A stretch of 64,000 nucleotides of DNA, taken from contig JAQUVS010000003.1 in the NCBI GenBank assembly GCA_028693275.1, forward strand, positions 6,046 to 70,045. Direction: 5' to 3'. The DNA is from Bacilli bacterium (GTDB taxonomy: Bacteria; Bacillota_I; Bacilli_A; RF39; UBA660). Positions within the stretch are counted from its first letter, which is position 1; each line of letters opens with the position of its first letter. The notes under the pieces were generated by a model. That model saw only the letters and a program-made list of their open reading frames with translations. It was not told where the DNA came from and made no database searches. Below are positions 1,913-51,993 of this stretch, one piece after another. The translations under genes and the position numbers were made by a program.

Positions 1913-1963
1913 TAAATCACCTTCTTATAATTATATTATAACTAAAAAAAGATTAATATCAAA

Positions 1964-2251: not shown

Positions 2252-3559
2252 TTAAAATGGAAGTTTCATATTTCCGTTTGTAAATTGTTTCATCATTTTT
2301 TTCATTTGTTCAAATTGATTTAATAATTTATTTACATCTTGAACAGTTTGACCTGAACCCGATGCAATTCTTTGTTTTCTTGTTGCTTTTATCATGTCTG
2401 GATTTCTTCTTTCTTTAGGCGTCATTGATAATATTATAGCTTCTATATGAGCTAATTGTTTAGGATCTATATTTACATTTGATAAACCCATTTTTGATGC
2501 TCCAGGAATTAATTTAATTAAGTTTTCTAAAGGACCAAGTTTTTTTATTTGTTTCATATTCTTTAGAAAGTCTTCTAAATCAAATTTACCACTTTGCATT
2601 CTTTTTGCAGAATTCATAGCTTCTTTTTCATCTATTACTTCCTGAGCTTTTTCAACAAGAGATATAACATCTCCCATACCTATTATTCTTCCAGCCATTC
2701 TTTCAGGATCGAAACTTTCTAATCCATCCATTTTTTCACTTACACCAATAAATTTAATTGGTACATTTGTTAAGTGTCTTACTGATAAAGCAACTCCACC
2801 TCTTGTATCTCCGTCTAACTTAGTAAGAATAACACCAGTTAATGCTAAATTAGAATTGAAACCTTCAATAACATTAATAGCATCTTGTCCCATCATTGAA
2901 TCAATTACTAATAATTTTTCTTGAATAGAAAATTTTTCTTCAATCCCTTTTAGTTCATCCATTAAGTTTTCATCTATATGAAGTCTACCGGCAGTATCAA
3001 TTAATATATAGTTATGTCCGTTTTCCTTAGCATATTTTAAAGCATTTTCTATTATTTCAAGAGGATTTTTCTTTCCTTCTTCATAAACTTCTATACCTAA
3101 TTCTTTACCAATTTGTCTTAATTGATCAATTGCTGCTGGTCTATATATATCACATGCTACTAGTAAAGGTTTCTTACCATGTTTTTTTCTTAAGTAGTTA
3201 GCTAATTTACCTATAGTTGTTGTTTTACCACTTCCTTGAAGACCAACTAACATAAGCATAGCTGGATTCCCATCTGTGTTTATATATTTTTGTTCACCAC
3301 CAAGTAAGTTTGCTAATTCATCTTTTACGATTTTAACAAACATATCACCTGGTTTAATACTTTTGGCTACTTCTTCACCTAAAGCTTTTTCTTTTACGTT
3401 ATTTGTGAATTCTTTTACTACTTTATAGTTAACATCTGCTTCTAATAGAGCTAATCTTATTTCTCTCATCATTTCGCTGATGTTTTCTTCACTTATTTTT
3501 CCATATCCTTTGATTTTATCAATTGCGCTTTGCAATCTATCTCCTAGTGTTTCAAACAT
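2252..3559 (-). CDS. ffh: Signal recognition particle protein Ffh
   Basis: N domain MFETLGDRLQ..., GTPase motifs GLQGSGKTTT/DTAGR/TKLDG, Met-rich M domain at C-terminus. Confidence 0.95.
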   Translation of the reverse strand: MFETLGDRLQSAIDKIKGYGKISEENISEMMREIRLALLEADVNYKVVKEFTNNVKEKALGEEVAKSIKPGDMFVKIVKDELANLLGGEQKYINTDGNPAMLMLVGLQGSGKTTTIGKLANYLRKKHGKKPLLVACDIYRPAAIDQLRQIGKELGIEVYEEGKKNPLEIIENALKYAKENGHNYILIDTAGRLHIDENLMDELKGIEEKFSIQEKLLVIDSMMGQDAINVIEGFNSNLALTGVILTKLDGDTRGGVALSVRHLTNVPIKFIGVSEKMDGLESFDPERMAGRIIGMGDVISLVEKAQEVIDEKEAMNSAKRMQSGKFDLEDFLKNMKQIKKLGPLENLIKLIPGASKMGLSNVNIDPKQLAHIEAIILSMTPKERRNPDMIKATRKQRIASGSGQTVQDVNKLLNQFEQMKKMMKQFTNGNMKLPF

Positions 3560-3580: not shown

Positions 3581-5341
3581 TTATTTTTCTATATTTGTCC
3601 ATTTACTAACGACATTACAATTACTGCTTTGAGGAGCAGGATTAGGCATTTCTACTTTTACTATCATTGGTATTTTAAAAGCATTACCAAAGATTAAACA
3701 ATTACCTATTTGTAATGATTTTTGCTTTTCAATTATCTCATCAGTGATATTTGGAATCATTTTTGTAATATATTCTATATCTCTTGGATGACTCATTTTA
3801 AATATAATGAAATTAGAACATTGTGATAATACTGTTTCTGATAAATCTACTGGTCTTTGAGATATTAGATTTAATATTATACCATACTTTCTTCCTTCTT
3901 TTGATACTCTATCAAAAATATTATATCCAAATAGTCTTTCATCATCATCTTTTTGTACATATCTATGAGCTTCTTCTAAAAATAGATTAAAAGGTACACT
4001 TCCTCTTTCTATTTTTTTAGAAAAATCAAATAATAAATTAGTGAATATTTTTACTATTGCCTTAGCAAAGGCATCATCTATATCTTCTAAATTAATATTT
4101 AATATCTGATATTTTTTTCCATCTTTTATTATAAGATTAGATAGAAATTGATCTAATTTACAAAATTCTCTATAATCAAAAAATTTAGCATTTGGACCTA
4201 TTACTAATTCATGTAATTTTACTTTTAATGATATTGCATCTGCGTAAACATTATTATTACGTAACCAACCTTCTGAAATTAAAGCAAAGTTCAATGATTT
4301 TTCTAAATCTTTTAAATCAAATAATTTTTTTTGTTTTGGTTCATATGAAGATAATTCTGGAGATATATGATTATTTATATATTCAGTTAATAAAACTCTT
4401 TCAGCAAATTGATCTGTTGAGTCTATTAGAAAACATTCATGTAATTTTCTAGTATATCCTATTCCGTGAACTACTGCATTCATATTAAAGAAATCGGTAG
4501 GACAAATATTTAAGATAGAAAATATTTCATCTCTTTTACTTGATGTTCCTTGATTAGAATATAAAACTGTTAATATTGCTGTTGCTATTAAATGATTCTT
4601 ATATTTTTCTGATATATCATCTGATTGAGCAAAAATATTAGCTAATTTTAAAGTTTTTTCTATTATAGATATTTGAGTATGAGTATTAGCTGACAATATT
4701 AATGCTAAATCATTTACTCCAAGAAGCCATAAAGGTATTCTTAATAGATCTCCCTTATATGGACTATTTTCGTTAGTTGTTATAAAACGATAATTATAAT
4801 TAGGATTTATTTCATTTATTCTAGAGAATGAAGCATTATATTCACCTGTTGAATCAAATATTATAAAATTAGATCTATATGGAATAAAATTTGGAATATA
4901 AAATACATTTTGTAATAATCTTGCTACTCCACATGATTTACCACTACCAGTATTCCCAAAAATAGCCATATGATTACTAAATAAATCATTCATACTTGAA
5001 TATACTACTTTGTCATTATAGAACGGACTTTCCCCCATATTAATGAATCCATATTTGTTTTCCCCAACAATTAGTGGAAGTTCATTTTCTTCTAGTAATC
5101 TTATTGTTGCATCAGGATTTGGCTTTCTAAGTATTCCTCCAACAAAATTGTTATTAATAATTTCACCTAATAATCTTATTGTTGCTTCGTCTTTATTACA
5201 TTCTACTACTTCTCCAAGTAGTTTCTTACTATTGTCTTCAATTACTAAAGGCATGCTCATTATTTCAGGTTTTATTTCATTATTTTCAATTAAAGTTACT
5301 TTTATGCTTTTTTCAGCAATATTAATTATTTTACCAAACAT
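3581..5341 (-). CDS. HerA-like (DUF87) P-loop ATPase, paralog 2
   Basis: HAS-barrel-like N-terminus; Walker A FGNTGSGKSCGVAR; Walker B FLEEAHRY; ISQRP arginine-finger motif; about 55-60% identical to neighbour 5350..7113; RBS GGAGGA overlaps the neighbour's stop. Confidence 0.7.
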   Translation of the reverse strand: MFGKIINIAEKSIKVTLIENNEIKPEIMSMPLVIEDNSKKLLGEVVECNKDEATIRLLGEIINNNFVGGILRKPNPDATIRLLEENELPLIVGENKYGFINMGESPFYNDKVVYSSMNDLFSNHMAIFGNTGSGKSCGVARLLQNVFYIPNFIPYRSNFIIFDSTGEYNASFSRINEINPNYNYRFITTNENSPYKGDLLRIPLWLLGVNDLALILSANTHTQISIIEKTLKLANIFAQSDDISEKYKNHLIATAILTVLYSNQGTSSKRDEIFSILNICPTDFFNMNAVVHGIGYTRKLHECFLIDSTDQFAERVLLTEYINNHISPELSSYEPKQKKLFDLKDLEKSLNFALISEGWLRNNNVYADAISLKVKLHELVIGPNAKFFDYREFCKLDQFLSNLIIKDGKKYQILNINLEDIDDAFAKAIVKIFTNLLFDFSKKIERGSVPFNLFLEEAHRYVQKDDDERLFGYNIFDRVSKEGRKYGIILNLISQRPVDLSETVLSQCSNFIIFKMSHPRDIEYITKMIPNITDEIIEKQKSLQIGNCLIFGNAFKIPMIVKVEMPNPAPQSSNCNVVSKWTNIEK

Positions 5342-5349
5342 AAATCCTC

Positions 5350-7113
5350 CTACTCCTTAGCTATCCATCTGTTATAAACATCAGCATTACTACTTTCAGG
5401 TAATGGATCTGGTAATTCCATTCTAATAATTGTTGGAATTCTAAATGCCTTACCAAAAGCAACACAATTTCCTATTTGCAGAACTTTTTGTTTATCTACA
5501 ATTTCAGAATTTATGTTTGGAACCATTTTCTTTATGTATTCAACATCTCTAGGATGGTTCATTTTAAAAATTAAGAAATTAGAACATTGTGATATAACTG
5601 TATCTGAAATTTCTACTGGTCTTTGTGAGACAAAAGTCATTATTACTCCGTACTTTCTTCCTTCTTTCGAAATTCTTTCAAAGATATTATATCCTAATAA
5701 TTCTTTATCTCTATCTTCTTGTATATATCTATGTGATTCTTCTATTACAATATTAAATGGAATAGATCCTCTATTTTCTAGGTTTTTAGAAAATTCAAAT
5801 GTTATTCTACAAAATATTTTTACTAAAACTTTAGCAAAAGAATCATCTACATCTTCTAAGTTAAAATTTATTATTTGGAATTTTCTTCCATCTTCTGAAA
5901 ACAACATATCATGTAAGTATTCTCTTTTATCTATAAATTTGTCCAATTTAAAGAATCTAGAATATCCACCTATTACTAAATTATGAAGTTTAACTTTAAG
6001 AGTAATAGCATCACCATATGTATTCTTATTTCTTAGCCATCCTTCACTAATAAGAGTAAAGTTAAGGGCATCTTCCAAGTCTTCTAATGTAAAATAATGT
6101 AATCCTTTAGGTTCAAAAGTATCAAATTCTTCTTTTATGAATGAACCTATATATCTTGTTATTAATACACTTTCTGAAAACTGACCATTGGAATCAATGG
6201 CAAAACATTCTCTAAAATTTCTACTATAACCCACTCCTGTGATATCAGTTTCCAAATTAAGGTTATATGTATGGCATGATTCTAATATAGTAAAAATATC
6301 ATTTCTTTTACTCGCTGATGTTTCATTTGAATAAAGAATGCTCATTAAAGCTTTTGCGATAAGATGATCTTTAAAATCTTCTGTTTTTACATCAGGGGAA
6401 GCAAAGATATTAACTAATTGAACTGTTCTTTCAATTAGAGGAATTTGTGAGTGATTTGTTGCATTTAATAAAAGAGCAATATCATCTATACTTAATAACC
6501 AAAGAGGTATTTTTAGTTTTTCTACATCATCAACTATTTCACTACTTGTTGAATATAAATTATAGTGGTAATTTGGATTTATTTCATTTATTTTTGAAAA
6601 AGCTGTTTTATATTCTCCAGTTGAATCAAAAATTATAAAATTTGCATTAAATGGCAAAAACTCTGCTGTTTTAAAAACATTTTGGATTATTCTTGCTACA
6701 CCACATGATTTACCACTACCAGTATTTCCAAAAATAGCCATATGATTACTAAATAAATCATTTACCCTAGCTCTAATTGGATAACCATTATAAATCGGAC
6801 TATATCCTAGTAAAATTGAGTCTTTTGAATTTTCTGCAACTAAAAGAGAAAATTCTTCACTTGTTATTATTCTTACATTGGAGTTTAAACTTGGTTTTCT
6901 AATTATTCCACCTACAAAACCATTATTTACAATTTCTCCAAGAAATCTGGTACCTACAGTGTTTTCATCCATGTCTTCTATTTCGGCTATTATTTTTTTT
7001 TCTTCATCTTCAAACAAAACATGTAAATTCATTAAATCTTTATTTAATGAAAGAGCATCTGATATTTTTACTTTTGCACCAGTATCACTAATATATGTTA
7101 TTTTATCAAACAT
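5350..7113 (-). CDS. HerA-like (DUF87) P-loop ATPase, paralog 1
   Basis: Walker A FGNTGSGKSCGVAR; Walker B VIEESHRY; VSQRP motif; RBS AGGGGAA; starts 18 nt after ylxM stop. Confidence 0.7.
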   Translation of the reverse strand: MFDKITYISDTGAKVKISDALSLNKDLMNLHVLFEDEEKKIIAEIEDMDENTVGTRFLGEIVNNGFVGGIIRKPSLNSNVRIITSEEFSLLVAENSKDSILLGYSPIYNGYPIRARVNDLFSNHMAIFGNTGSGKSCGVARIIQNVFKTAEFLPFNANFIIFDSTGEYKTAFSKINEINPNYHYNLYSTSSEIVDDVEKLKIPLWLLSIDDIALLLNATNHSQIPLIERTVQLVNIFASPDVKTEDFKDHLIAKALMSILYSNETSASKRNDIFTILESCHTYNLNLETDITGVGYSRNFRECFAIDSNGQFSESVLITRYIGSFIKEEFDTFEPKGLHYFTLEDLEDALNFTLISEGWLRNKNTYGDAITLKVKLHNLVIGGYSRFFKLDKFIDKREYLHDMLFSEDGRKFQIINFNLEDVDDSFAKVLVKIFCRITFEFSKNLENRGSIPFNIVIEESHRYIQEDRDKELLGYNIFERISKEGRKYGVIMTFVSQRPVEISDTVISQCSNFLIFKMNHPRDVEYIKKMVPNINSEIVDKQKVLQIGNCVAFGKAFRIPTIIRMELPDPLPESSNADVYNRWIAKE

Positions 7114-7130
7114 AATAATTCCCCTATTCT

Positions 7131-7421
7131 TTAAATTAATTCTTCTATTTTATTCTTTTTTTCTTCTTCTATATTTTTAATAATTTTCATTATCTTTTCT
7201 TTTTTTTCTAGGAGTTTTAATTTCTCTTCATAGAAAAAAAGTTTTTCTTCTACACTCTTAATCTGTAAGTGTACTGCATTTCTACTTATTGAATTATTCT
7301 CAGCTATTTCCCCTAATGATAAATCATCAAAGTAATAGTTTTCAAAATATTCTCTTTGCTTATTTGTAAATAATTCTGAATAGTAATCATAAAGTTGATT
7401 TAGATATATTTTTTTATCCAT
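7131..7421 (-). CDS. ylxM: YlxM/UPF0122 small helix-turn-helix protein of the SRP operon
   Basis: 96 aa; sigma-70 region-4-like HTH LSLGEIAENNSISRNAVHLQIK; sits between ftsY and ffh as in Bacillus. Confidence 0.75.
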   Translation of the reverse strand: MDKKIYLNQLYDYYSELFTNKQREYFENYYFDDLSLGEIAENNSISRNAVHLQIKSVEEKLFFYEEKLKLLEKKEKIMKIIKNIEEEKKNKIEELI

Positions 7422-7429
7422 TTTATCAC

Positions 7430-8422
7430 CTACATCATTTCTTTAAAGAGACTATAAATATATTTTTCTATATCGAATGGTTGTAAATCTTCTTTTGTTT
7501 CACCAAGACCAATATATTTAACTGGAATATTTACTTCTTCTTTGATTGCTAAAACTATTCCACCTTTTGCTGTTCCATCTAATTTTGTTAAAACTATACC
7601 AGTTATATTTGTTATTTCTTTAAAACTTTTTGCTTGACTGATACCATTTTGACCAGTTGTAGCATCTATTACTAGTAATGTTTCATGAGGAGCATTAGGT
7701 ATTTTTGTTCCTATTACTTTGTTTATTTTTTCTAGTTCCTTCATTAGATTTGTTTTATTTTGTAATCTTCCAGCTGTATCTATTAAAATTATATCTGCAT
7801 TTTCTTTTATTGCATTATCTATTCCTTTAAAGACTACTGCTGCAGGATCTACTCCTTCAGTTTCCCCTGTAAATAATGTATTTGTTCTATTTGCCCATTC
7901 TTCTAATTGAGCTGTTGCTCCTGCTCTAAAAGTATCTCCGGCAACAAGCATAACTTTTTTCCCTTGTTCTTTAAATTTCCATGCCATTTTACCAATTGTT
8001 GTTGTCTTGCCTACTCCGTTAACTCCTACAAATAAAATTACTGTTGGTCCTTCATTATTTATATTTATTTTATTAACGATTACTTCGTCATTTACATAAA
8101 TTATAAACAACTCATCAACTATTATTTCTTTTAATTCAACAGGATCTGTTATGTGTTCCTTCTTACATCTATTTTTAATTCTTTCTATAAAATCCATTAC
8201 AGTTTTAACGCCTATATCAGACATTATCAATATTTCTTCTAGTTCTAGAAAATAATCTTCTGTAATTTTATCATATCTGTTTGTTAGATTTATCAGCTTG
8301 GATACAAAATTTTCTCTAGTTTTTGATAATCCCTTATCATAAATATTTATATCTTCTTTTTCTTTTGTTGTTATTGTATTTTCTTTTGAAAAAACATTTT
8401 TAATTTTATCAAATAATCCCAT
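7430..8422 (-). CDS. ftsY: SRP receptor FtsY (short form, no acidic A domain)
   Basis: NG domain with GVNGVGKTTTIGK, DTAGR, TKLDG; N-terminal amphipathic MGLFDKIKN. Confidence 0.9.
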   Translation of the reverse strand: MGLFDKIKNVFSKENTITTKEKEDINIYDKGLSKTRENFVSKLINLTNRYDKITEDYFLELEEILIMSDIGVKTVMDFIERIKNRCKKEHITDPVELKEIIVDELFIIYVNDEVIVNKININNEGPTVILFVGVNGVGKTTTIGKMAWKFKEQGKKVMLVAGDTFRAGATAQLEEWANRTNTLFTGETEGVDPAAVVFKGIDNAIKENADIILIDTAGRLQNKTNLMKELEKINKVIGTKIPNAPHETLLVIDATTGQNGISQAKSFKEITNITGIVLTKLDGTAKGGIVLAIKEEVNIPVKYIGLGETKEDLQPFDIEKYIYSLFKEMM

Positions 8423-8520
8423 ATTCCCTCCTGTTATCTTTAATTAATTGTTAATACTTTTATTATATCAAATATTATTTTAATTTACTATAAAACTAAA
8501 TTATTTTATTGAAGTTAAAT

Positions 8521-8553
8521 AAAAAAAGTAATCCTTTTTTTAGAATTACTTTT
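8521..8553 (-). terminator. Rho-independent terminator downstream of 8552..9238
   Basis: minus-strand hairpin AAGTAATTCT-aaaaaa-AGGATTACTT followed by T7. Confidence 0.5.
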
Positions 8554-9238
8554 ATATTATTTCTTTTGCCTTATGTTTAATTTTTGTTTTTTTTGAACTT
8601 AATCTATCTAAATCAATTATTTCACCTGTTGTAAAATCAACTAGAGGAATAGTTAAAGCATTGATTGATAGTAGCTCACTTACTTTTTTTATGATATCTA
8701 TATCATAATGAGATTCTACTTCATCTCTTGTCCAATTATAATCTTTTCTACTTTTAAAGGCTATTGCTTTTATATATCCCAAAGGAATTCTTTTATAAAC
8801 ATTAATAGTTCCATCTTTTCCTTTATGATGTGGTAACTCAAATAATATTTTTTCATCTATTACTAGTATTAATTCTTGAAGAAAACATTTATATGGATTT
8901 TGAATTGTTTCTTTTTTATCTTGATGGATACTTCTTTTTGGATGTTCTACTAAAGAAATAAAATCATATTCACTTTTACATGATGATAATTCTAAATTAA
9001 TATTTTTATTTTGACTTTTTATTTCATTATATGATAATATTTCTCCACTTTCAAAAATACTATTAAGTTTAAAGAAACTATTAACTAGTGGTATTTTTTG
9101 ATTTAATTCTATGTGAGATATAGTTTCTACTCCGTTTATTTTTACTGTTTGACTATTAAAATAAATCTTCTTATTTGTTATTCCGTGAAATAGATAATTT
9201 CTTAAATCTTTACTTGAATCTAAATATACTTTTTCCAT
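8552..9238 (-). CDS. Hypothetical protein (no recognisable domain)
   Basis: 228-aa ORF with its own terminator; no motif recognised by eye. Confidence 0.45.
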   Translation of the reverse strand: MEKVYLDSSKDLRNYLFHGITNKKIYFNSQTVKINGVETISHIELNQKIPLVNSFFKLNSIFESGEILSYNEIKSQNKNINLELSSCKSEYDFISLVEHPKRSIHQDKKETIQNPYKCFLQELILVIDEKILFELPHHKGKDGTINVYKRIPLGYIKAIAFKSRKDYNWTRDEVESHYDIDIIKKVSELLSINALTIPLVDFTTGEIIDLDRLSSKKTKIKHKAKEII

Positions 9239-9312
9239 ATTTGCTCCTTATTGGTGTATATTATAAAATACTAATTGTCTTTTAGCAATAGTCTTTTTAT
9301 AAATAATAATGG

Positions 9313-9348
9313 ACAAAAGTCCTTTTTTAGAGTATAATTTTATCGGTT
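9313..9348 (+). promoter_or_regulatory. Putative sigma-A promoter of rnj (TGGACA-17-TATAAT)
   Basis: -35 TGGACA, 17-nt spacer, -10 TATAAT about 40 nt upstream of rnj RBS. Confidence 0.4.
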
Positions 9349-9389
9349 AGTTCTTTTTGTATTAAAAATTAACTTTGAAAGGAGAAAAT

Positions 9390-11066
9390 ATGAAATTTAA
9401 TAAACCGGATGAAACTAAGTTTATAGTTCTTGGAGGTTTAGGTGAAGTTGGAAAAAACATGTATTGTGTAATGCATGAAGATGAAATAGTTATTATAGAT
9501 GCGGGGATTTCTTTCCCTGATGAAAGTGTATATGGGGTTGATTATGTTATACCTGATTATACTTTCTTAAAACAAAATCAAGATAAAATAAAAGCTTTAG
9601 TAATAACACATGGTCACGAGGACCATATAGGAGGGATTCCTTTTTTATTACAAAGTTTATCTATTCCAGCTATTTATGCGCCTAGACAAGCTAAAGAATT
9701 AATAGCTTTAAAACTAGAAGATAGAAATATTCGTTATGATTTTTTAAATGTATATGACGATACTACTATTTTAAATTTTAAGAATATTAAAATAGAATTT
9801 TTTAAAACAACCCATTCTATACCTGATTCTCATGGTATTTCAATTACTACAAAGAATGGAACAATTGTAACAACAGGAGACTTTAAGTTTGACTTTACTC
9901 CAATTGGTCCAATGGCTGATTTACACAAAATGGCAGAAATTGGGAAAAGAGGAGTAGATTTATTAATTAGTGATTCTACTAATGCCCTTAATGAAGGAAT
10001 TAGTACTAGTGAATCAAAAGTTGATGATGCTTTAAATGCTTTCTTTGATGATTATAAAGATAGTAGAATAATTATTGCTACTTTTGCTTCTAATATATAT
10101 AGATTGAAACATATTGTTGAAACTTGTCACAAATATGGAAGAAAAATTTGTGTATTTGGTAGAAGTATGGAAAATAACTTGAAGATATCTACAGGTGGCG
10201 GATATATTGAGCATGGAGATATATTAATTAATGCTGATGAAGCTAATAATTTGAAGCCAGGAGAAGTTTGTTTACTTTGCACTGGTTCTCAAGGGGAACC
10301 ACTAGCTGCTTTATCTAGAATATCTGATGGAACTCATAGACAAATAAAATTGAGACCTGATGATGTTGTAGTTTTCTCATCTTCACCAATTCCAGGTAAT
10401 GCTCTTAGTATTTCTAAGACAATAAATAAGCTTTACCTAAAGGGTGTTAAAGTATTTACTGCTAATAGCAATAATGATTTACATACTTCTGGTCATGCAA
10501 ACCAAGATGAATTGAAATTAATGATCAGACTTCTAATGCCTAAATTTGTAATGCCGTTCCATGGTGATTATAGAATGTTAAAGAAACATGCTGATGTAGC
10601 TATGGATTGTGGAGTTCCTAAGGAAAATACTTTTGTTATTGATAATGGTAATGTTCTTACATTATACAATCATGTAGTTACAAAAGATGAAGAAAAGGTT
10701 CAAGCAGGGGAAGTTTATATCGATGGAAACCGTATTGGTGAAATTGGTGGTGCTGTTTTAAAAGATAGAAAGATTATGTCAAACGATGGTATACTTGTTG
10801 TTATTGCTAACGTTGATATTGTAAATAGAAAAATATTAATAAAACCAAATATTACTACTAGAGGATTTGTACTTGTAAATGAAAATGAAGAACTAATCAA
10901 GAATATTGAAAAAATGTCTTATAATATTATTAATGATAGATTAACAAAATCTCATGATTCTATAATAGATATTAAATCAAAAGTTGCAAGTGAATTATCC
11001 CCTTATATAGAAAATATTACGGGAAGAAAACCAATTATTTCAACAATGATTGTGGAAATAAAGTAA
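9390..11066 (+). CDS. rnjA: Ribonuclease J (metallo-beta-lactamase/beta-CASP)
   Basis: HGHEDHIGG motif; beta-CASP region; RBS AAAGGAG before ATG at 9390. Confidence 0.9.
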   Translation: MKFNKPDETKFIVLGGLGEVGKNMYCVMHEDEIVIIDAGISFPDESVYGVDYVIPDYTFLKQNQDKIKALVITHGHEDHIGGIPFLLQSLSIPAIYAPRQAKELIALKLEDRNIRYDFLNVYDDTTILNFKNIKIEFFKTTHSIPDSHGISITTKNGTIVTTGDFKFDFTPIGPMADLHKMAEIGKRGVDLLISDSTNALNEGISTSESKVDDALNAFFDDYKDSRIIIATFASNIYRLKHIVETCHKYGRKICVFGRSMENNLKISTGGGYIEHGDILINADEANNLKPGEVCLLCTGSQGEPLAALSRISDGTHRQIKLRPDDVVVFSSSPIPGNALSISKTINKLYLKGVKVFTANSNNDLHTSGHANQDELKLMIRLLMPKFVMPFHGDYRMLKKHADVAMDCGVPKENTFVIDNGNVLTLYNHVVTKDEEKVQAGEVYIDGNRIGEIGGAVLKDRKIMSNDGILVVIANVDIVNRKILIKPNITTRGFVLVNENEELIKNIEKMSYNIINDRLTKSHDSIIDIKSKVASELSPYIENITGRKPIISTMIVEIK

Positions 11067-11118
11067 AATAAGAAAAGAGTAATTGTTGATAGAATTTACT
11101 ATCTAGTCAATTACTCTT
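11067..11118. terminator. Bidirectional terminator between rnj and 11119..11763
   Basis: hairpin AGAGTAATTG ... CAATTACTCT followed by T-run. Confidence 0.5.
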
Positions 11119-11763
11119 TTATTTTTCTTCTTCTATATCTAAAACTGTTATTGTTCTTGTTTGAGTTGTTATATTACCTGCAATATCTTCAGCGTTGTAT
11201 GTTACTGTATATGTTCCAGGAACTGAAGTATTGATTGTTAACGGGTCAGTTGTATATAGCTTACCTACTCCTGATTCTTTATCAGAAACTGTTACTCCTG
11301 TTCTTAACGAAAAAATTGAGTTTTTATAGATAGAATTTTGTTCTGGTAATTTTATTACTGGTGGAATTTTATCTATTTTTTTTATTTCTACATCTATCTT
11401 TTCACTAAGAAGATTTTTTGTATCTCTTACCATTATAGTAACATTTTGATTATCTGAAAAATCTTTTTTGTTTTCTTTTTGCCAAGTTTTTCCACCATCA
11501 AAAGAATATTCTTTTATAAGTTTTTTATCTTCATCAACAATTACTGTTAATTTTTCGTTAGACCACTTATCTTCTTCTATATAAGCGTTTGGTATTTTTA
11601 TATATGGAGTTTTTCTTTCGATATCTTCTAAATTTTTATTATAAAAATATAGGGAAGTCAAAACTATGGCAATAACAAATATTATACATGTTATTATAAT
11701 TGCTACAAGTTTAACATTCATACTTCTTGGTTTCTCAAATTCATCTGTGTACATTTTTATCAC
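11119..11763 (-). CDS. Membrane-anchored protein with C-terminal bacterial Ig-like domain
   Basis: N-terminal TM helix; C-terminal VPGTYTVTYNAEDIAGNITTQTRTITV Ig-like signature. Confidence 0.5.
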   Translation of the reverse strand: MIKMYTDEFEKPRSMNVKLVAIIITCIIFVIAIVLTSLYFYNKNLEDIERKTPYIKIPNAYIEEDKWSNEKLTVIVDEDKKLIKEYSFDGGKTWQKENKKDFSDNQNVTIMVRDTKNLLSEKIDVEIKKIDKIPPVIKLPEQNSIYKNSIFSLRTGVTVSDKESGVGKLYTTDPLTINTSVPGTYTVTYNAEDIAGNITTQTRTITVLDIEEEK

Positions 11764-13500: not shown

Positions 13501-14742
13501 CTATAATCCTGAAGTTCTTGATGAATATGTTCCACCATAATGATTAAATATACCTAATGTTCTTGAAATTGAATAACCTGATGCATTGGTATTTTCTATT
13601 TTTCCACCATACTGATTTAATATTGCTGTTGCAACATTATTAGAAAATATTGTTGATGCATATGCTGTGTAATAATTTCCACTATAAATGTTCATTATAC
13701 CTGAATTTGTTATGATTGGACTTATAGCATCATTTCTATATACTTCAGTGTCATATAAATTCATAACTGACTTACCATTGTTACTATTCCAAATTGCAAC
13801 TGCAGAAGTTGTTGTGTTAGTTACTGTTACATCTTTTAAAGTCATTATAGAGTAATTTACTAAACTTTTTGTATATGTTGCAGTTACTGTATTTGTAATT
13901 ACTCCAGGCCCCTCAATAATCATATCACCATAATTCGTAATAGCATCCATTCCAACACCATCGATTTTGTGACCATTAAGTTTTAAAGTAATTATTTTCC
14001 CATTACTAACAGTAGCATTACCATTGTAATCTTTAGTCATATATATAATTGTTTCTTTATCTAATTCAGCAGCTGAAAAAGCATCATACATGGAATTATA
14101 ACCTACATTATTGACTTTAAAACTAAAAGTAGTTGGAGTAAAATCGATATTACAATTTTCATTTGAGTATACATCATCATGATTTAGTTTCCACTCTTTT
14201 GAGTTCCATGATTGGCCTATTTCAGATGAACAAGTTATTGTTTTTACATCATATAAATTACCATCTGGAGCAGTAGCTACAGCACTACTATCAATACTAT
14301 AAGTAATTAATACTTGTCTTTTACCTGTATCATTACAATCTGCTACAAATTCTCCTTCAAATAATTCGGGATTTTTATCTTCGTTTACGGTTACTATATT
14401 GTCACCATATTTTAAGACATAATCGACAACTTCATTATTTTTAACATAAACGCAACTATTTCCCTCTGGAGCTTCTCCCGTAATTGATACGGTCACCTCT
14501 TGGTTAGATAAATCATTAAGGGTATAACTTCCATCGGCAATTATGGCGCTGTCGCCGTTACTTTCTATTAAATACAATTTATCATTTGTTGCTTTCACAT
14601 ATTCTCTAGCTGAAATTAATAATGATTTTAACTCAGCTCTCTTTACTGTGTTCATGATTTCAGGAATAGCTATTAACATTATTGTACCTAATATAACAAT
14701 TACACCTAATATTTCAATTAAAGTAAATCCCTTTTTATTCAT
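13501..14742 (-). CDS. Type IV prepilin-like protein with large C-terminal beta-helix-like domain
   Basis: Class III signal MNKKG|FTLIEILGVIV (Glu at +5); C-terminal approx 180 aa of N/T/S-rich repeats typical of a parallel beta-helix. Confidence 0.6.
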   Translation of the reverse strand: MNKKGFTLIEILGVIVILGTIMLIAIPEIMNTVKRAELKSLLISAREYVKATNDKLYLIESNGDSAIIADGSYTLNDLSNQEVTVSITGEAPEGNSCVYVKNNEVVDYVLKYGDNIVTVNEDKNPELFEGEFVADCNDTGKRQVLITYSIDSSAVATAPDGNLYDVKTITCSSEIGQSWNSKEWKLNHDDVYSNENCNIDFTPTTFSFKVNNVGYNSMYDAFSAAELDKETIIYMTKDYNGNATVSNGKIITLKLNGHKIDGVGMDAITNYGDMIIEGPGVITNTVTATYTKSLVNYSIMTLKDVTVTNTTTSAVAIWNSNNGKSVMNLYDTEVYRNDAISPIITNSGIMNIYSGNYYTAYASTIFSNNVATAILNQYGGKIENTNASGYSISRTLGIFNHYGGTYSSRTSGL

Positions 14743-32387: not shown

Positions 32388-32420
32388 AATTTGCAACCAA
32401 TTTGGTTGCTTTTTTTTGTG
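32388..32420 (+). terminator. rpsD terminator
   Basis: hairpin GCAACCAAATTGGTTGC followed by T8. Confidence 0.6.
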
Positions 32421-32455
32421 CTTTTATTTATAATTTATATGATATGGAGGTTTAG

Positions 32456-33418
32456 ATGAAGATAAAAAAATTGAATAAATATGGATTTACTTTAATTGAA
32501 TTACTTGCTGTTATAGTAATCCTTGGAGTAATAATGGTAATTGCAATACCTTTTATTACAGGTTATATAGAACGTAGTAAAAAAGATGCATTTGATGTTT
32601 CAGCATATAATATACTTGATGCTGGGAGTAAATTTTATGTCAGTGAGATGGATTATATAGATGGAATAGCTTCTGGAAAGATTTCTTTTGAAATAATAAA
32701 TAAAGAATTAGTTGGAATAGATGGAAATACTAAGAAAATAGATTTCAAGGGTACTTTACCTGATTTTGGTAAAATGCAAATTAATAGTAGTGGAGATATT
32801 GAATTATCTCTTTGTGATAAAACTTTTTGTGCTTGTAAGGCATTTACTGATAATAAAATTATTATGCAAGAAGATAATTGTTTTGTTAATAGTGAAACAG
32901 GTAATGTTGAGACAACTACTGAACCTACTACTAATACTTCTAGTACAATTACTGGAACTATAATTAGTTTTTTAAGTACTTCTACTCCTGAGGGCTATGT
33001 TAAATGTGATGGAACTATTTATAATATAGTTGATTATCCAAAGCTAGCTAATTTCATAAAAAATCAATATGGTAGTTTTAGCTTTTTTGGAGGAGATGGA
33101 ACAAATACATTTGCTGTTCCCAATATTAACGATAGGTATTTAAAAGGTTCATCTAATCCTGGTCAATATGAAAATGCGGGATTACCAGAAATATCAGGTA
33201 CTTTATCACCTAGTAGTGATGTTGGTTTTAGAAGTAATGCTTCAAGTTATGGTGGTTCTTTTTATGCTACAACTACTAAAAGAAACTTTGTCTCATCTGG
33301 AGTATCAGAACAAACATCAGTTGTAGGATTTAAAGCATCTCTTTCAAGTCCTATTTATGGTAGTTCTTCTACTGTAACTCCAAATAATTTTTCAGTGGTT
33401 TTTTATATTAAGTATTAA
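32456..33418 (+). CDS. Type IV prepilin-like protein fused to C-terminal phage tail-collar (MdpB-like) domain, copy A
   Basis: Class III signal KYG|FTLIELLAVIV; tail-collar signature YVKCDGTIYNIVDYPKLANFI...GGDGTNTFAVPNINDRYLKG; C-terminal TVTPNNFSVVFYIKY. Confidence 0.65.
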   Translation: MKIKKLNKYGFTLIELLAVIVILGVIMVIAIPFITGYIERSKKDAFDVSAYNILDAGSKFYVSEMDYIDGIASGKISFEIINKELVGIDGNTKKIDFKGTLPDFGKMQINSSGDIELSLCDKTFCACKAFTDNKIIMQEDNCFVNSETGNVETTTEPTTNTSSTITGTIISFLSTSTPEGYVKCDGTIYNIVDYPKLANFIKNQYGSFSFFGGDGTNTFAVPNINDRYLKGSSNPGQYENAGLPEISGTLSPSSDVGFRSNASSYGGSFYATTTKRNFVSSGVSEQTSVVGFKASLSSPIYGSSSTVTPNNFSVVFYIKY

Positions 33419-33419
33419 A

Positions 33420-33447
33420 AAAAAGAGAAAAGGTAAACTTTTCTCTT
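33420..33447. terminator. Bidirectional terminator between convergent pilin-like genes
   Basis: hairpin AGAGAAAAG-gtaaa-CTTTTCTCT with A/T runs on both sides. Confidence 0.55.
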
Positions 33448-34404
33448 TTAATATTTTATAAAATATAATACCGATACATTTTCAGGTGTTACAGTTGTTG
33501 ATTTTCCATATATTGGATTGGATAAGCTTGCATCAAATAGCGCATCAATAACACCGTATCCTCCACTTCCAACAGGACTTCTTGATGTTCCGTTATAGAA
33601 TGCCCCGGTTCTTCCGATCCAAGAAATAGTACTTCCTAAACCTCCTGTTATATTAGGTAAGCCCGCTTCTTCAAGTGTTCCGGCAACAGTTGCTCCTTTT
33701 AAAAATTTATTTACATAATTTGGTAGATTAAATGTCGTTGTTCCGTCTCCTGAACCATATTTTGTTCCTATAATATCAAATAAATTTTTATATGTTGTTC
33801 TAGATATTTCTCTACCGTCGCAAAGGATATATCCTGAAGGAACAGTTGGAGCAGCACTAGCAAAAATAGTTCCTATTGGAGTTGAGTCACTTTTTGCGGA
33901 TAACTCATTTACCTTTTGCTGTAATTCTATAACTAGATTAGTTAATTCTTGATTATTATATTCTGTTATAGTTGCTTCACTACCAAGATATATTGCACTT
34001 GTTCCTAATGGTATATTACAATTTTCTCCACTAACAGTTGTTACTTCTTTGTCACTATAGTTTTTATATGCAGTATACTTACCATTATTTATACATACTG
34101 CTACATTTCCTAATCTATCTACAAGCATAGAACCATCTTCTATTTTTCCTTTGTATTCTAATCTTTCACCATCTGGTGTTGTTAAATTTCCATTTACTAA
34201 ATCAAATCTTTGACTAGTATCTACTTCTTTTTCTGTATAATACCAACTAAGGACATCAATTATTCCATATGCACTTTTTTCTACTGATTTTAAATTAGCT
34301 TTAACTATATAATTGGTTACCATAGGTATAGATATTGTTGAAATAATTGTTACAATTAAAATAACTGCAAGTAATTCTATTAATGTAAATCCCTTTTTAT
34401 TCAT
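33448..34404 (-). CDS. Type IV prepilin-like protein fused to C-terminal phage tail-collar (MdpB-like) domain, copy B
   Basis: MNKKG|FTLIELLAVILIV; tail-collar signature GTIFASAAPTVPSGYILCDGREISRTTYKNLFDIIGTKYGSGDGTTTFNLPNYVNKFLKG; C-terminal TVTPENVSVLYFIKY. Confidence 0.65.
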   Translation of the reverse strand: MNKKGFTLIELLAVILIVTIISTISIPMVTNYIVKANLKSVEKSAYGIIDVLSWYYTEKEVDTSQRFDLVNGNLTTPDGERLEYKGKIEDGSMLVDRLGNVAVCINNGKYTAYKNYSDKEVTTVSGENCNIPLGTSAIYLGSEATITEYNNQELTNLVIELQQKVNELSAKSDSTPIGTIFASAAPTVPSGYILCDGREISRTTYKNLFDIIGTKYGSGDGTTTFNLPNYVNKFLKGATVAGTLEEAGLPNITGGLGSTISWIGRTGAFYNGTSRSPVGSGGYGVIDALFDASLSNPIYGKSTTVTPENVSVLYFIKY

Positions 34405-34412: not shown

Positions 34413-35639
34413 CTAAAGATATTTGTAAAGGAAATATTTTTTCTTTCCTTTTCTTACTACAATGTATTTATTATCTATTGTTAAATTTTTATCTACTATT
34501 TTGTCTAAGTCCATTATTTTATTACCATTGATAGTAATTGTACCAGCTGTAATAAATTCTCTAGCTTCTCTTTTACTTGTTGCTATATTGTTATTTACTA
34601 GGAAGTCAACAATGTTTATATCCTCAGATATATTAGAGATATTTTCATTTTTGAAAACTTCTTCTATCTCTTCTATTGTTAACTCATTAATATTTCCATT
34701 AAATAAGATATTTGTTAATCTTAGGGCTTTTTGATATTCTAGGTCACCATGGATATCTGTTATTATCTCTTTTGCAAGAATTTTTTGGGCATCTCTATAT
34801 TCAGGATGTTCTTTATGTTTTAATTCTATTTCATCTATTTGTTCTTTTGTTAAAAATGTTAATTTTTTTAAATAAGAAATTATCATAGAATCTTCTAAGT
34901 TTATTAGATATTGATATAACTCGTAGCTTGATGTTTTATTTTTATCTAACCATAATGCGTTTCCTTCAGTTTTTCCAAATTTAACACCGTTTGAATCTGT
35001 TACTAGAGGCATTACCATCCCGTATGCTTCTTTTCCTAGTTTCTTTCTTATTAATTCTATTCCAGAAGTTATGTTTCCCCATTGGTCTGAACCTGCTACT
35101 TGTAGTGTACAATTTCTATTTTCGTATAAGTACATAAAATCTAAGGCTTGTAAAATCATATAAGAAAATTCAGCATAAGTTATTCCTGTTTCTAATCTTG
35201 ATTTAACTTTATCTTTTGCTAACATATAGTTGATATTAAAGTATTTTCCATAATCTCTTAAAAAATCTATAACATTAATATCTTTAGTCCAATCCCAATT
35301 ATTCACTACTTCAAAGCCAAAAATTCTTTCAGCTTGTTCTTTTAATCCTTTAAAATTCTTGTCTACTTCTTCTTTTGAAATCATTGGTCTTTCAGATGTA
35401 GGTTTTGGATCTCCAATTAATCCTGTTGCTCCACCTACAAGTAATATTGGATGATGATTTCCTTTAGCCAATCTTTTTGATATTAAAAAAGAAGAATAAT
35501 GTCCAATATGCATTGAATCTGCTGTTGGATCTGTTCCTATATAAAAAGTTAGTCCTCCATTGTTGATTTTTTCAATTAATGATTCATCACTTATATCTTG
35601 AACTAAACCTCTCCATTTTAAATCTTCAAATAAATTCAT
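34413..35639 (-). CDS. tyrS: Tyrosyl-tRNA synthetase
   Basis: HIGH (MHIGHYSS), KFGKT (KMSKS equivalent), C-terminal S4-like domain. Confidence 0.95.
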   Translation of the reverse strand: MNLFEDLKWRGLVQDISDESLIEKINNGGLTFYIGTDPTADSMHIGHYSSFLISKRLAKGNHHPILLVGGATGLIGDPKPTSERPMISKEEVDKNFKGLKEQAERIFGFEVVNNWDWTKDINVIDFLRDYGKYFNINYMLAKDKVKSRLETGITYAEFSYMILQALDFMYLYENRNCTLQVAGSDQWGNITSGIELIRKKLGKEAYGMVMPLVTDSNGVKFGKTEGNALWLDKNKTSSYELYQYLINLEDSMIISYLKKLTFLTKEQIDEIELKHKEHPEYRDAQKILAKEIITDIHGDLEYQKALRLTNILFNGNINELTIEEIEEVFKNENISNISEDINIVDFLVNNNIATSKREAREFITAGTITINGNKIMDLDKIVDKNLTIDNKYIVVRKGKKKYFLYKYL

Positions 35640-35651
35640 TTTTACCTCCTT

Positions 35652-35860
35652 ATAATAAAAAAAGACTATTCATCACATAAGGACGAATAATCGCGGTACC
35701 ACCTTAATTCATAGAAATATCCTATGCACTTGATACTATAAAGCGTTACCTTTTAAGCTCCAAAAATGTAATTCACAATTATTCCATGTTTATTTTCACC
35801 TACCATAAACTCTCTATGTATGAATTATAATTACTACTATTTTTCTTCATTGCTAATGAT
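35652..35860 (-). promoter_or_regulatory. T-box riboswitch leader of tyrS (Tyr specifier UAC)
   Basis: minus strand shows AGAGAG box, specifier ...GAAUUACAUU..., T-box AATTAAGGTGGTACCGCG, and terminator ATTATTCGTCC-ttat-GTGATGAATA followed by T7. Confidence 0.8.
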
Positions 35861-48800: not shown

Positions 48801-51635
48801 CTATTTAGCCACTATGTTTACTATTCTATTTTTAATTACTATTACTTTTACTATTTCTTTTTCTTCTAAATGTTTTTGTACATTTGAGTCACTTAAAGCT
48901 TTTTCTTTTATTTCTTCTTCAGTATCATTAATTGCACAAATAATAGTTCCTCTTAATTTACCATTTACTTGAACAGCTATTTCTTTTTCTTCATCTATTA
49001 TTTTTTCTTCATCATATGTTGGCCATGCTGATTCACATAAAGGATTTCCTAAATGATTAATTTCATTTAATTCTTCTGTTATATGAGGAGCTATAGGATT
49101 TAATAAAGTAAGTAGTGTTCTATAGTCTTTTTGACTTATTTCTTCTTTATCAGTCATTTCATTAGTTAATATCATTAAAGCAGAAACTGCTGTGTTAAAT
49201 TTCATATTATCTATGTCTTCTGTGACTTTTTTTATTGTTTTATTAATTATCTTTTCTAAAGAAGATGAGTATTCATCTGAGTTATTTAATTTGTCTTGTA
49301 ATTTAATAACTTTATCTAAGAATCTTCTACAACCATTTAGACTTTGTTCGCTCCAAGCAGCTTCTTTTTCATAGTCTCCTATAAACATTTCATAGCATCT
49401 TAGTGCATCTGCTCCTTGTTTTTTTACAACGTCATCGGGATTTATAACATTACCCTTAGACTTAGACATTTTTTCTCCACCTTCACCAAGAATCATTCCG
49501 TGGGCTACTCTTGTCTTAAAAGGTTCTTTGTAAGGAACTAATCCAATGTTATATAGGAATTGATTCCAGAAACGAGCATATAATAAGTGTCTTGTAGCAT
49601 GTTCCATTCCACCATTATACCAATCAAGTTGTCCCCAATAATTCAATGCTTCTTTTGAAACAAATTCTTTATCATTTTTAGGATCCATGTATCTTAACCA
49701 GTACCAAGAAGATCCAGCCCAGTTAGGCATTGTATCTGTTTCTCTTTTAGCTGGTTTTCCGCATTTAGGACATGTTGTATTTACCCAACTTTCTATTTTA
49801 GCAAGTGGACTTTCACCATCATCTGTTGGTTCATACTCAGCTACATCTGGTAATAAAACAGGAAGGTCTTCTTCTTTAACTGGAACCCATCCACATTCAT
49901 CACAACATACTAAAGGTATTGGTTCTCCCCAGAATCTTTGTCTTGTAAATATCCAATCTTGTAATTTATAATTTGTTTTCTTATAACCGATTCCTTCTTT
50001 TTCTAAATACTCTAACATTTTATTTATAGATTCTTTTTTATTTGTTAAACCATTTAAGATACCAGAATTAACCATTTTGCCGTCTCCAGCATAATAATTA
50101 TTTTCTGCTAGTAAATTTCTGAATGTAGTAATATGTAATTCATCTTTTACTTCTTTTTCTATTATTTCTCTTGATACCCATTCAATTTCAAATTTACCTT
50201 TTTCGTCTTCATCAAGATTATTTGTTTCTTTCTTATCAGAAATAAGTTTAAATAATAATCCAATACTTTCTATTTCATAAGCTTTATTCTTATTATAAGC
50301 AAAATAATGATGATTAATTGGACTAATTTCTTTGATAAATCTAATATCTGTGTATCCAGTTTCTTCTTTTATTTCTCTTACAGCTGTTTCTAATGCAGTC
50401 TCATTATCTTTTCTTGTTCCCCCAATAAATAATCTTCCACCTAATTCTTTCCAATTAAGAGTTAAATATTTATTATTTTCTTCGTCATAAATAACTGCTA
50501 CTATACTATTTTTTTGTTCTTCATTTTCTCTTTGTTCACCAGTTATTTGTTCTATAACAGGGATTATTTCTATATTAAATTTACTTGCAAATTCATAGTC
50601 TCTATCATCATGTGCTGGAACAGCCATAATAGCTCCTGTTCCATAGTTCATCATAACATAATCTGAAATATAAATAGGAATTTCTTTATTTGTAATAGGA
50701 TTAATAGCTGTTAATCCATCAATTCTCACACCAGTTTTTTCTTTTGTCATATTTAATCTTTCAAATTCTGTTTTGAAATTTGTTTTTTCTCTATAATCTA
50801 TTATTTCATTCATGTTGTTTATTATTCCACTATATAGGTCTATATATGGATGTTCTGGGGCTATTACCATGAAAGTAACTCCATATAAAGTATCTGGTCT
50901 TGTTGTATATACTTTTAATTTTTCATCTATTTCTTTAATTTTAAAATCTACTTCTGCTCCTGTTGATTTTCCTATCCAATTGATTTGAGCAGTTTTTATT
51001 CTTTCTTGGAAGTCAGTCTCATCTAAACCTGTTATTAAGTCTTCTGCATAGTCTGACATTCTTAGTACCCATTGGTCTTTTTCTTTTTGAACTACAACTG
51101 ATCCACATCTTTCACAAGTTCCTCCGCTAGAATCTTCATTTGATAAACCTGTTTTACAATTAGGGCACCAGTTTATACTTTTTTTAGCTTTATATGCCAT
51201 ATCGTGTTCATAAAATTTAATAAATTGCCATTGAGTCCATTTATAGTATTCTGGATCAGTAGTAGAAAATTCTCTACTCCAATCAAATGAAATACCAAGA
51301 TCTTTTATTTGTCCCTTAAATGTTTTTATGTTTTCAGCTACTGCTTCTTTAGGATGAATATGATTTTTAATAGCATATTGTTCTGCTGGAGCCCCAAAAG
51401 CATCCCATCCCATTGGAAATAATACATTATATCCCATCATTCTTTTCTTTCTTGCCATTGTATCAATTGCTGTATAGCTTCTTACATGACCAACATGTAA
51501 TCCAGATCCAGATGGATATGGAAATTCTACAAGATAAAAATATTTTTCCTTATCACTATTATTTTTTGCAACAAAAGTATTATTATCATCCCAATATTTT
51601 TGCCATTTTTTTTCTATATCATTTATTGTCATCAT
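48801..51635 (-). CDS. leuS: Leucyl-tRNA synthetase carrying an inserted Nudix hydrolase domain
   Basis: HVGH and KMSKS motifs, CP1 editing domain; about 150 extra residues including a perfect Nudix box between ...IPVIEQI and AGDGKMVNSG; terminator hairpin AGTGGCTAAATAGCCACT + T-run at the 3' end. Confidence 0.95.
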   Translation of the reverse strand: MMTINDIEKKWQKYWDDNNTFVAKNNSDKEKYFYLVEFPYPSGSGLHVGHVRSYTAIDTMARKKRMMGYNVLFPMGWDAFGAPAEQYAIKNHIHPKEAVAENIKTFKGQIKDLGISFDWSREFSTTDPEYYKWTQWQFIKFYEHDMAYKAKKSINWCPNCKTGLSNEDSSGGTCERCGSVVVQKEKDQWVLRMSDYAEDLITGLDETDFQERIKTAQINWIGKSTGAEVDFKIKEIDEKLKVYTTRPDTLYGVTFMVIAPEHPYIDLYSGIINNMNEIIDYREKTNFKTEFERLNMTKEKTGVRIDGLTAINPITNKEIPIYISDYVMMNYGTGAIMAVPAHDDRDYEFASKFNIEIIPVIEQITGEQRENEEQKNSIVAVIYDEENNKYLTLNWKELGGRLFIGGTRKDNETALETAVREIKEETGYTDIRFIKEISPINHHYFAYNKNKAYEIESIGLLFKLISDKKETNNLDEDEKGKFEIEWVSREIIEKEVKDELHITTFRNLLAENNYYAGDGKMVNSGILNGLTNKKESINKMLEYLEKEGIGYKKTNYKLQDWIFTRQRFWGEPIPLVCCDECGWVPVKEEDLPVLLPDVAEYEPTDDGESPLAKIESWVNTTCPKCGKPAKRETDTMPNWAGSSWYWLRYMDPKNDKEFVSKEALNYWGQLDWYNGGMEHATRHLLYARFWNQFLYNIGLVPYKEPFKTRVAHGMILGEGGEKMSKSKGNVINPDDVVKKQGADALRCYEMFIGDYEKEAAWSEQSLNGCRRFLDKVIKLQDKLNNSDEYSSSLEKIINKTIKKVTEDIDNMKFNTAVSALMILTNEMTDKEEISQKDYRTLLTLLNPIAPHITEELNEINHLGNPLCESAWPTYDEEKIIDEEKEIAVQVNGKLRGTIICAINDTEEEIKEKALSDSNVQKHLEEKEIVKVIVIKNRIVNIVAK

Positions 51636-51993
51636 TTTTATCATTTCTCTCTTTCTTTATTATGTTTGCAAGGATGTTAAACGAAACTAAAATTATAGGT
51701 ATTAATATTACAAATCCTACTATCATTTGTAGTACAGGATTTTCTATTACAGAAATAATAGTTACTACGATAGATACATCTAAAGCAACCATTTTTGCTA
51801 TTTTTTCCATTACTTTTTTACCATTAATCTTAGATAAATCTAGTTTATATTTGTATACTAAAAACTGTAATTCTATAGGTGTTTTCTTTTTATCACTCTT
51901 TTTATATTTTCTAACATAAAGTATATAGTATAAAAAATATACACTTAAAAATGTGAGTAAGAATAAAATACCTTTGTCATATAAATCTTTCAT
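51619..51993 (-). CDS. Small two-TM membrane protein encoded between the leuS T-box leader and leuS
   Basis: RBS GGAGGAGAGG 7 nt before ATG 51993; two hydrophobic helices with a basic loop; 3' end overlaps the leuS start. Confidence 0.45.
   Translation of the reverse strand: MKDLYDKGILFLLTFLSVYFLYYILYVRKYKKSDKKKTPIELQFLVYKYKLDLSKINGKKVMEKIAKMVALDVSIVVTIISVIENPVLQMIVGFVILIPIILVSFNILANIIKKERNDKNDDNK

Follow-up and report, generated by a model that had tools for sequence, protein, structure and literature searches.

Modular pilins, in which a type IV pilin is joined to a further domain, are widespread (PMC8179133). In Streptococcus sanguinis, PilB combines a pilin with a vWA domain and PilC combines a pilin with a lectin (PMC8179133, PMC9934059). 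Two convergent open reading frames (ORFs), ORF1 and ORF2, in a 64-kb stretch of a Bacilli metagenome-assembled genome (MAG; contig JAQUVS010000003.1, positions 6,046 to 70,045; the whole stretch is called the window) were compared with these and other described systems. Each of the two proteins is built of three parts: a class III signal with a full pilin module, a connector, and a tail-fibre receptor-binding knob. We regard it as probable, with room for doubt, that ORF1 and ORF2 are modular minor type IV pilins displaying a phage-derived adhesin tip. By analogy with phage fibres, this tip is probably trimeric. The S. sanguinis modular pilins are proposed to be tip-exposed adhesins of a monoderm host, and the host is monoderm here also. 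However, S. sanguinis encodes these proteins within a pil operon, whereas ORF1 and ORF2 stand alone among housekeeping genes. Unlike in PilB and PilC, the module grafted here is a phage tail-fibre tip (Collar), with a putative coiled-coil neck in ORF2.

In a catalogue of 264 modular-pilin architectures, the plain combination IPR012902-IPR011083 (N_methyl-Collar) is not listed; Collar occurs there solely behind FN3 or a PilV shufflon domain, in one protein each (PMC8179133). A fusion of PilV shufflon and phage tail collar, UCP91044.1, is reported to be a target of programmed inversion, and its phage-type tip was proposed by the authors to set the binding specificity of the pilus (PMC9881135). 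It is the sole published pilin-Collar fusion found in our literature search. UCP91044.1 has a PF04917 N-terminus, lies among pilus genes and is subject to DNA inversion, whereas ORF1 and ORF2 lack invertible segments and gave no match to PF04917 (PilV shufflon) in the Pfam scan.

A second relevant group is formed by type IVb minor pilins with C-terminal trimers. CofB, from the CFA/III pilus of enterotoxigenic Escherichia coli, is located at the tip of the pilus and forms trimers through its C-terminal domains (PMC6048534). In CofB and in TcpB of Vibrio cholerae, the beta-rich C-terminal trimer is found at the tip, primes assembly and carries the binding site (PMC6048534, PMC5207764). These proteins, like ORF1 and ORF2, have beta-rich C-terminal domains behind a pilin domain, and they are the best model for a trimeric knob on a pilus. 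The differences are that an H-type lectin is found there and Collar here, without kinship of the C-terminal parts in sequence or fold, and that the present locus has no type IVb operon. CofB and TcpB form homotrimers, whereas for ORF1 and ORF2 we infer trimerisation.

The phage systems compared were the fibre of cyanophage A-1(L) (8kec), T4 gp12 (1ocy/5lye), the T4 gp37 tip (2xgf) and the fibre of Pseudomonas phage Pa223 (9nxk). Unlike these, ORF1 and ORF2 lie outside a phage, have no fibre shaft, begin with a pilin N-terminus and have no HxH. The Collar domain and the C-terminal motif are held in common with free Collar proteins (MdpB or COG4675-type; Bizionia C24, 6ov6), but the latter have a Sec signal or none, and no pilin module. 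The initial annotation of this DNA, made from the letters alone, had called the domains MdpB-like. Although a Collar domain is present, the label says nothing beyond that and explains nothing about function. Some Collar-only relatives are named "microcystin-dependent protein" by JGI, and a search of the MdpB literature gave nothing useful. New here is the existence, across the lineage, of a family whose pilin carrier, often equipped with a coiled-coil neck, ends in phage-fibre tips that are exchangeable and hypervariable; modular pilins as such were already known.

The same annotation had described two paralogs of 320 and 318 residues with class III signals, tail-collar domains and a conserved C-terminal motif, facing each other across a shared terminator. 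These points were upheld. Both genes are present at the positions and lengths given, the proteins align over their full length with 34% identity (E 2e-47), and the hairpin between the convergent genes is real (Table 1). The N_methyl profile matched residues 7-31 of ORF1 with 30.3 bits and residues 2-25 of ORF2 with 26.9 bits (gathering threshold, GA, 21.2), and TIGR02532 (IV_pilin_GFxxxE) matched them with 30.4 and 27.6 bits against a cut-off of 16.3. In each protein the leader ends in Gly and is followed by FTLIE, with Glu at +5 (MKIKKLNKYG/FTLIELL in ORF1, MNKKG/FTLIELL in ORF2), which is the class III signal peptide of a type IV pilin. Collar (PF07484) was found at residues 167-227 of ORF1 with 51.5 bits and at residues 178-234 of ORF2 with 69.6 bits (GA 24). 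N_methyl and Collar thus lie in one polypeptide, with a linker between separately folded domains, as in a modular pilin. The C-terminus, TVTPxNxSVxxFIKY, fits the consensus of 90 Collar proteins (...IYGxSxTVQPPAxTxxYxIKY).

Prepilin-type N-termini of this kind raise the question of the competence (Com) pseudopilus. ORF1 and ORF2 could be minor pilins of such a structure, the tip being adapted to capture DNA or DNA-bearing material. The host belongs to the monoderm Bacilli, a class in which Com pili are common (PMC7212644), and weak sub-threshold matches to the ComGC, ComGD and ComGE models of NCBIfam were obtained. These matches reached 23-26 bits against cut-offs of 49-75 and were confined to the first ~30-50 residues; over all ComG models the scores were 15-26 bits against cut-offs of 49-80, always within the N-terminal helix, and neither protein qualifies as a ComG protein. 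No comG operon lies in the window. The tip family, moreover, binds cell-surface receptors, which for T4 gp12 is lipopolysaccharide. A Com function is accordingly considered improbable.

AlphaFold2 models of the monomers were built from family alignments, with a mean predicted local distance difference test score (pLDDT) of 87.1 for ORF2 and 84.7 for ORF1. In both models an N-terminal helix of ~50 residues packs on a small beta-sheet, a predicted pilin fold. The front halves matched Thermus PilA4 (6.2 and 6.4), gonococcal pilin, GspH, GspK, PilX and the S. sanguinis minor pilin PilA. The tips are predicted to have the fold of the gp12, gp37 and A-1(L) fibre tips, the knob of ORF2 comprising residues 175-318 of its model. 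The pilin module of ORF1 contains Cys at 120, 125, 127 and 142; Cys104 and Cys129 (ORF2 numbering) are invariant across the family. As connector, ORF1 has a flexible Thr/Ser linker, ORF2 a short heptad helix. Hydrophobic residues of the latter follow a 4-3-4-3 spacing (L..LV..L...V..L), and this neck belongs to the segment that ORF2 shares with phage fibres. The profile matches, the two structure models and the fold searches thus agree on the architecture first proposed for these proteins, a pilin module carrying a phage receptor-binding-type domain. The tail-fibre tips matched by fold are all homotrimers.

From this architecture a course of events can be proposed. Prepilin peptidase would cleave after the leader Gly. 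The hydrophobic alpha-1 helix would then allow the protein to be extracted from the membrane by a type IV filament machine encoded elsewhere. Because tail-fibre knobs and necks are homotrimers, three copies would associate via neck and knob and cap the filament tip, in the manner of the trimeric minor pilin CofB. Binding would fall to the variable loops; the most plausible surface ligand is a glycan or a cell-wall polymer, carried by another bacterium or by host mucus. Since loops and connectors differ between the two paralogs, ORF1 and ORF2 probably differ in binding specificity.

The genes could also be leftover prophage tail-fibre genes in which the pilin-like N-terminus arose by chance. 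The strong Collar match and the NCBI names, which refer to phage tails, speak for this. The Pfam scan covered every ORF of at least 90 aa in the full window, and no phage genes were found among them; a phage tail or baseplate context is lacking. The window holds a series of housekeeping genes from a Firmicute with a cell wall and 26% GC, including ffh, ftsY, rnj, rny, recA, recU, a class A penicillin-binding protein gene, der and ackA, and also thiI, ezrA, tyrS, three FemAB genes, leuS and fhs. ORF1 and ORF2 are placed between rpsD and tyrS, with ezrA, thiI and ackA as further neighbours; tyrS was identified from its NCBI name and from Pfam on the strain variant L187, and rpsD was recognised from its translation. 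Codon usage is native: GC at third codon positions (GC3) is 0.09-0.11 in ORF1 and ORF2, compared with 0.124 +/- 0.023 for the window genes. The N-terminal halves score above curated pilin profile thresholds and are predicted to fold as pilins, the locus is kept beside tyrS in another sample, and the pilin module was covered by 0 of the best 80 matches in IMG/VR. A prophage remnant, contradicted by the phage-free window and the native codon usage, was rejected; almost no weight can be given to it. By contrast with that origin, native GC3, housekeeping flanks, conservation of the locus in a strain variant and the coupling of ORF2 to tyrS mark ORF1 and ORF2, on sequence grounds, as native chromosomal genes.

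A six-frame search for the prepilin motif returned three window genes and one false match inside rpsD. The third gene, overlooked by the initial annotation, lies at 13501-14742 (-) in the interval between recA and rny, where it stands alone. It encodes a prepilin-type modular protein of 413 aa (NCBI MDD3241448.1; N_methyl 25.9 bits), whose C-terminal part (~280 aa, rich in Thr, Asn and Gly) gave no Pfam match.

The origin of the tip was examined separately from that of the front. With the last 147 aa of ORF2 as query, tblastn retrieved 492 phage records in which the annotation reads tail fibre or minor tail protein, and PHROG tail-fibre families match both ORF1 and ORF2. When its own 90% cluster was excluded, the closest relatives of ORF2 residues 151-318 were all non-pilin Collar proteins, with 49-53% identity. 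One of them, P0021, the nearest phage homologue, is 53% identical to residues 152-318. Its gene lies in a phage baseplate/tail module on a 61-kb contig, where Baseplate_J and Mu Gp48 genes directly precede it and Amidase_3 follows. The closest relatives of residues 1-150, by contrast, were all prepilins (42-49% identity). All matches returned from IMG/VR are of tail-fibre type: 79 of the best 80 align to the tip half only, and the lone match that covers more of the query (L094) is an ordinary tail fibre lacking a prepilin N-terminus. The tip is thus nearest to free or phage Collar proteins and the front nearest to prepilins, and by these relationships the ORF2 gene is a mosaic, with a carrier from pilins and a neck and knob from fibres. 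The initial annotation's suggestion of a pilin of unusual origin is supported in this way. Recent horizontal acquisition of the tips was rejected, as the GC3 of the tips alone (0.08-0.14) is the same as that of the genome; the higher total GC of the tips therefore reflects amino-acid composition. The fusion of pilin and tip is, from the same kind of comparison, an old one.

The likeness to gut-phage fibres (49-53% identity) would also suit an anti-phage decoy or receptor mask, in which the displayed or released tip occupies the cell's own surface receptor and blocks the phages that use it. Fast diversification of the loops between strains and between paralogs, as in an arms race, is consistent with this. 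However, the phage with the closest fibre has 34% GC, against 26% for the present genome, and is therefore not obviously a phage of the present host. A conserved pilin module and neck would be superfluous in a decoy, and the Pfam scan of the window showed no adjacent defence genes, PADLOC not having been run. We rate the decoy function as quite improbable.

A search of 5.8 billion proteins recovered ORF2 itself and ~25 family proteins of 320-400 aa, in which N_methyl is combined with Collar or with the related T4 Gp10_C domain. Their hosts are represented by low-GC gut Bacilli metagenomes, apparently from animal and human gut samples. In all contexts fetched, the relatives are lone genes amid housekeeping genes of spore-forming Firmicutes with 22-27% GC, downstream of pnp, dnaJ, htrA, greA and ddl, among others. 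Among 21 members, mean pairwise identity is 0.67 in the signal peptide and alpha-1N helix, 0.46 in the globular pilin part, 0.61 in the Collar core, 0.27 in the loops at 239-300 and 0.67 in the C-terminal strand. Glu5 is retained in all family members. The spacing between the NQELT motif and the knob shifts across the family mostly in 7-residue steps, which fits a coiled-coil neck; together with the heptad pattern, this lends indirect support to a trimeric assembly. The pilin carrier with the NQELT neck is also joined to at least four more, unrelated C-terminal ends that are neither Collar nor Gp10_C (metagenome contigs L173, L176, L177/L180, L178).

The ruminant MAG RGIG8886 encodes three pilin-Collar paralogs, two of them in tandem, in which the first 60 residues including alpha-1 are 100% identical, the scaffold 80-95% and the loops 29-40%. 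The strain variant L187, from another sample, is collinear over tyrS-ORF2-ORF1 with 91% nucleotide identity. Between ORF2 strain variants, identity is 98.7% in the pilin half and 94% or 85% in the tip (85% for L187), with changes clustered at 255-294; the neighbouring tyrS is 93% identical. Between ORF1 and its counterpart in L187, 8 of the 10 substitutions fall within residues 146-168, the linker region. Tips of this type vary through paralogs and strain divergence and not through inversion. Programmed inversion of the shufflon type was rejected: the inverted repeats between ORF1 and ORF2 (49 nt coding for the signal peptide, and ~178 nt at 70% identity coding for the C-terminus) arise because two convergent paralogs share coding sequence, and the Pfam scan of the window found no recombinase.

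Several observations weigh against a tip-displaying pilin of a working filament. The initial annotation had found no assembly ATPase, platform protein or prepilin peptidase in the window, and the scan agrees: no T2SSE, T2SSF or Peptidase_A24 was present there, nor were such genes found in the 3 kb past its right end. Assembly genes were likewise absent from the +/-10 kb flanks of eight relatives and from the ~200 kb of relatives' flanks overall. A PilB-type ATPase could not be placed in the present MAG. The gut Bacilli genomes in which one was found (27-31% GC; see below) are loosely tied to the present lineage, the sole bridge being UvrC, whose N-terminal 203 aa show 64% identity when an ATPase-bearing genome is compared with a family-bearing one. 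Large families with prepilin-type N-termini exist in some phyla for which, to our knowledge, no pilus role has been demonstrated. With respect to the tip, neither ORF1 nor ORF2 contains a single His residue, hence both tips lack the HxH metal sites that T4 gp12 and gp37 possess; HxH is present in relatives with Gp10_C-type tips (P0065, P0066, P0086). ORF1 is without a helical neck and is preceded by only a weak promoter-like site, and the models of both proteins, for which a trimeric tip is proposed, are monomeric.

All fetched loci were searched for signature motifs of GspE and A24, and no machinery emerged for the present genome. The same was true of a metagenome scan with the carrier module, which returned 12 mostly short contigs. 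Other low-GC gut Bacilli, as found in the fetched loci, encode a very conserved GspE/PilB-type ATPase adjoining prepilin-type genes. In locus L185 the ATPase (10001-11338) is flanked by two such genes, at 7144-9903 (-) and 6662-7132 (-), one product being a prepilin-type protein of 919 aa (MKRVNNRG/FLLAE) with Ricin-B lectin and glycine-rich ALK_LTK_GRD domains. At the matching position beside the ATPase, L053 and L089 encode a pseudopilin-like protein of 176-183 aa. The pilus genes of these ATPase-bearing gut Bacilli are scattered and not operonic. In L053, at 27-2487 (+) and ~6 kb from the PilB-type ATPase, three tandem Collar-domain proteins with HxH repeats are also encoded; two of the three have ordinary Sec signal peptides in place of prepilin N-termini.

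The lack of machinery bears most directly on surface display without a pilus, with the prepilin N-terminus serving solely as a membrane anchor, whether cleaved or uncleaved, or in a short pseudopilus or "bindosome"-like assembly. The knob would then be located at the cell surface and not on a long filament. Archaeal sugar-binding proteins with class III signals are a precedent for such display. Every pilin-like gene examined in the lineage stands alone among housekeeping genes with no assembly operon near, and the carrier resembles an all-purpose scaffold for display, since at least six different C-terminal ends are found fused to it. However, the whole globular pilin module is conserved, including two invariant Cys, together with Glu5 in all members, and these features are needed for filament packing and not for anchoring. 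Related gut Bacilli, moreover, encode the PilB-type ATPase beside prepilin genes. We consider display of this kind unlikely; as the machine was not found, it keeps an appreciable probability. Minor pilins with a phage-derived adhesin tip remain the preferred reading of ORF1 and ORF2.

Clues to expression were found for both genes. The ORF2 start lies 8 nt past the tyrS stop codon, its Shine-Dalgarno sequence overlaps that stop codon, and the spacing is the same in L187. There is no terminator between tyrS and ORF2. The short spacing, the overlap and the lack of an intervening terminator suggest that ORF2 is probably co-transcribed with tyrS. A T-box leader precedes tyrS, and through it ORF2 expression may rise when tRNA-Tyr is uncharged. 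Upstream of ORF1, beyond the rpsD terminator hairpin, TATAAT (32429-32434) and GGAGG (32447-32451) were noted; the assignment of a promoter here, made by eye, is weak.

Table 1. Positions of ORF1, ORF2, their parts and adjoining signals in the window, and of the pilin-Collar paralogs of the ruminant MAG RGIG8886.
Feature	Position	Strand	Remarks
ORF1	32456..33418	+	320 aa; NCBI MDD3241466.1, annotated "tail fiber protein"
ORF1 leader (aa 1-10, MKIKKLNKYG) and pilin module (aa 11-145)	32456..32890	+	in the model, alpha-1 helix 13-63, beta-sheet 75-138
ORF1 Thr/Ser-rich flexible linker (aa 146-164)	32891..32947	+	pLDDT <50 at residues 147-160
ORF1 tail-fibre-type tip (aa 165-320)	32948..33415	+	Collar domain and C-terminal strand
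Shared bidirectional intrinsic-terminator-like hairpin	33421..33449	both	12-bp stem, 5-nt loop, T-runs on both strands
ORF2	33448..34404	-	318 aa; NCBI MDD3241467.1, "MAG: phage tail protein [Bacilli bacterium]"
ORF2 tail-fibre-type tip (aa 173-318)	33451..33888	-	Collar core 173-238, variable loops ~239-300, conserved C-terminal strand
ORF2 linker and helical neck (aa 136-172)	33889..33999	-	low-confidence hinge, then helix 151-170 in the model
ORF2 leader (aa 1-5, MNKKG) and pilin module (aa 6-135)	34000..34404	-	in the model, alpha-1 helix 8-59, beta-sheet 65-125
tyrS with T-box leader (35676-35859)	34413..35859	-	Rfam T-box 108.5 bits
rpsD terminator hairpin	32393..32409	+	46 nt upstream of ORF1
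RGIG8886 paralogs	L005 9803-10921, 10932-11915; L004 2291-3361		L004: contig JAGAYJ010000014.1

Other genes of the window were noted in passing. Near the third prepilin-type gene, between rnj and rny, a 214-aa protein (11119-11763, -) carries a surface Ig-like domain (PF16403, 35.8 bits). The leucyl-tRNA synthetase (48801-51644, -; 947 aa) contains a NUDIX hydrolase domain at residues 380-495, just after the editing domain (40 bits, GA 21.1); that of the relative L001 has 803 aa. Two tandem paralogous ATPases of the HerA/DUF87 type (586/587 aa; 3581-5341 and 5350-7113, -) lie between ffh and ylxM-ftsY.

If this reading of ORF1 and ORF2 is true, a phage host-recognition module has moved onto bacterial pili, and a trimeric viral knob would be added to the repertoire of modular pilins. 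The names "tail fiber protein" and "phage tail protein" would then mislead prophage finders and functional surveys. One carrier, made of pilin and neck, with many tips would constitute a natural system for the evolution of pilus binding specificity. The finding would also hint at a way in which little-studied gut Bacilli may adhere to partner cells or mucus. It is conceivable, though rather unlikely, that these low-GC gut Bacilli recognise specific other bacteria (such as partners, prey or DNA donors) and hold on to them with type IV filaments whose tips are interchangeable phage tail-fibre knobs. The knobs would be drawn from the gene pool that phages use for host recognition, and cell-to-cell specificity would evolve as the host range of phages does, through swapped tips and hypervariable loops.

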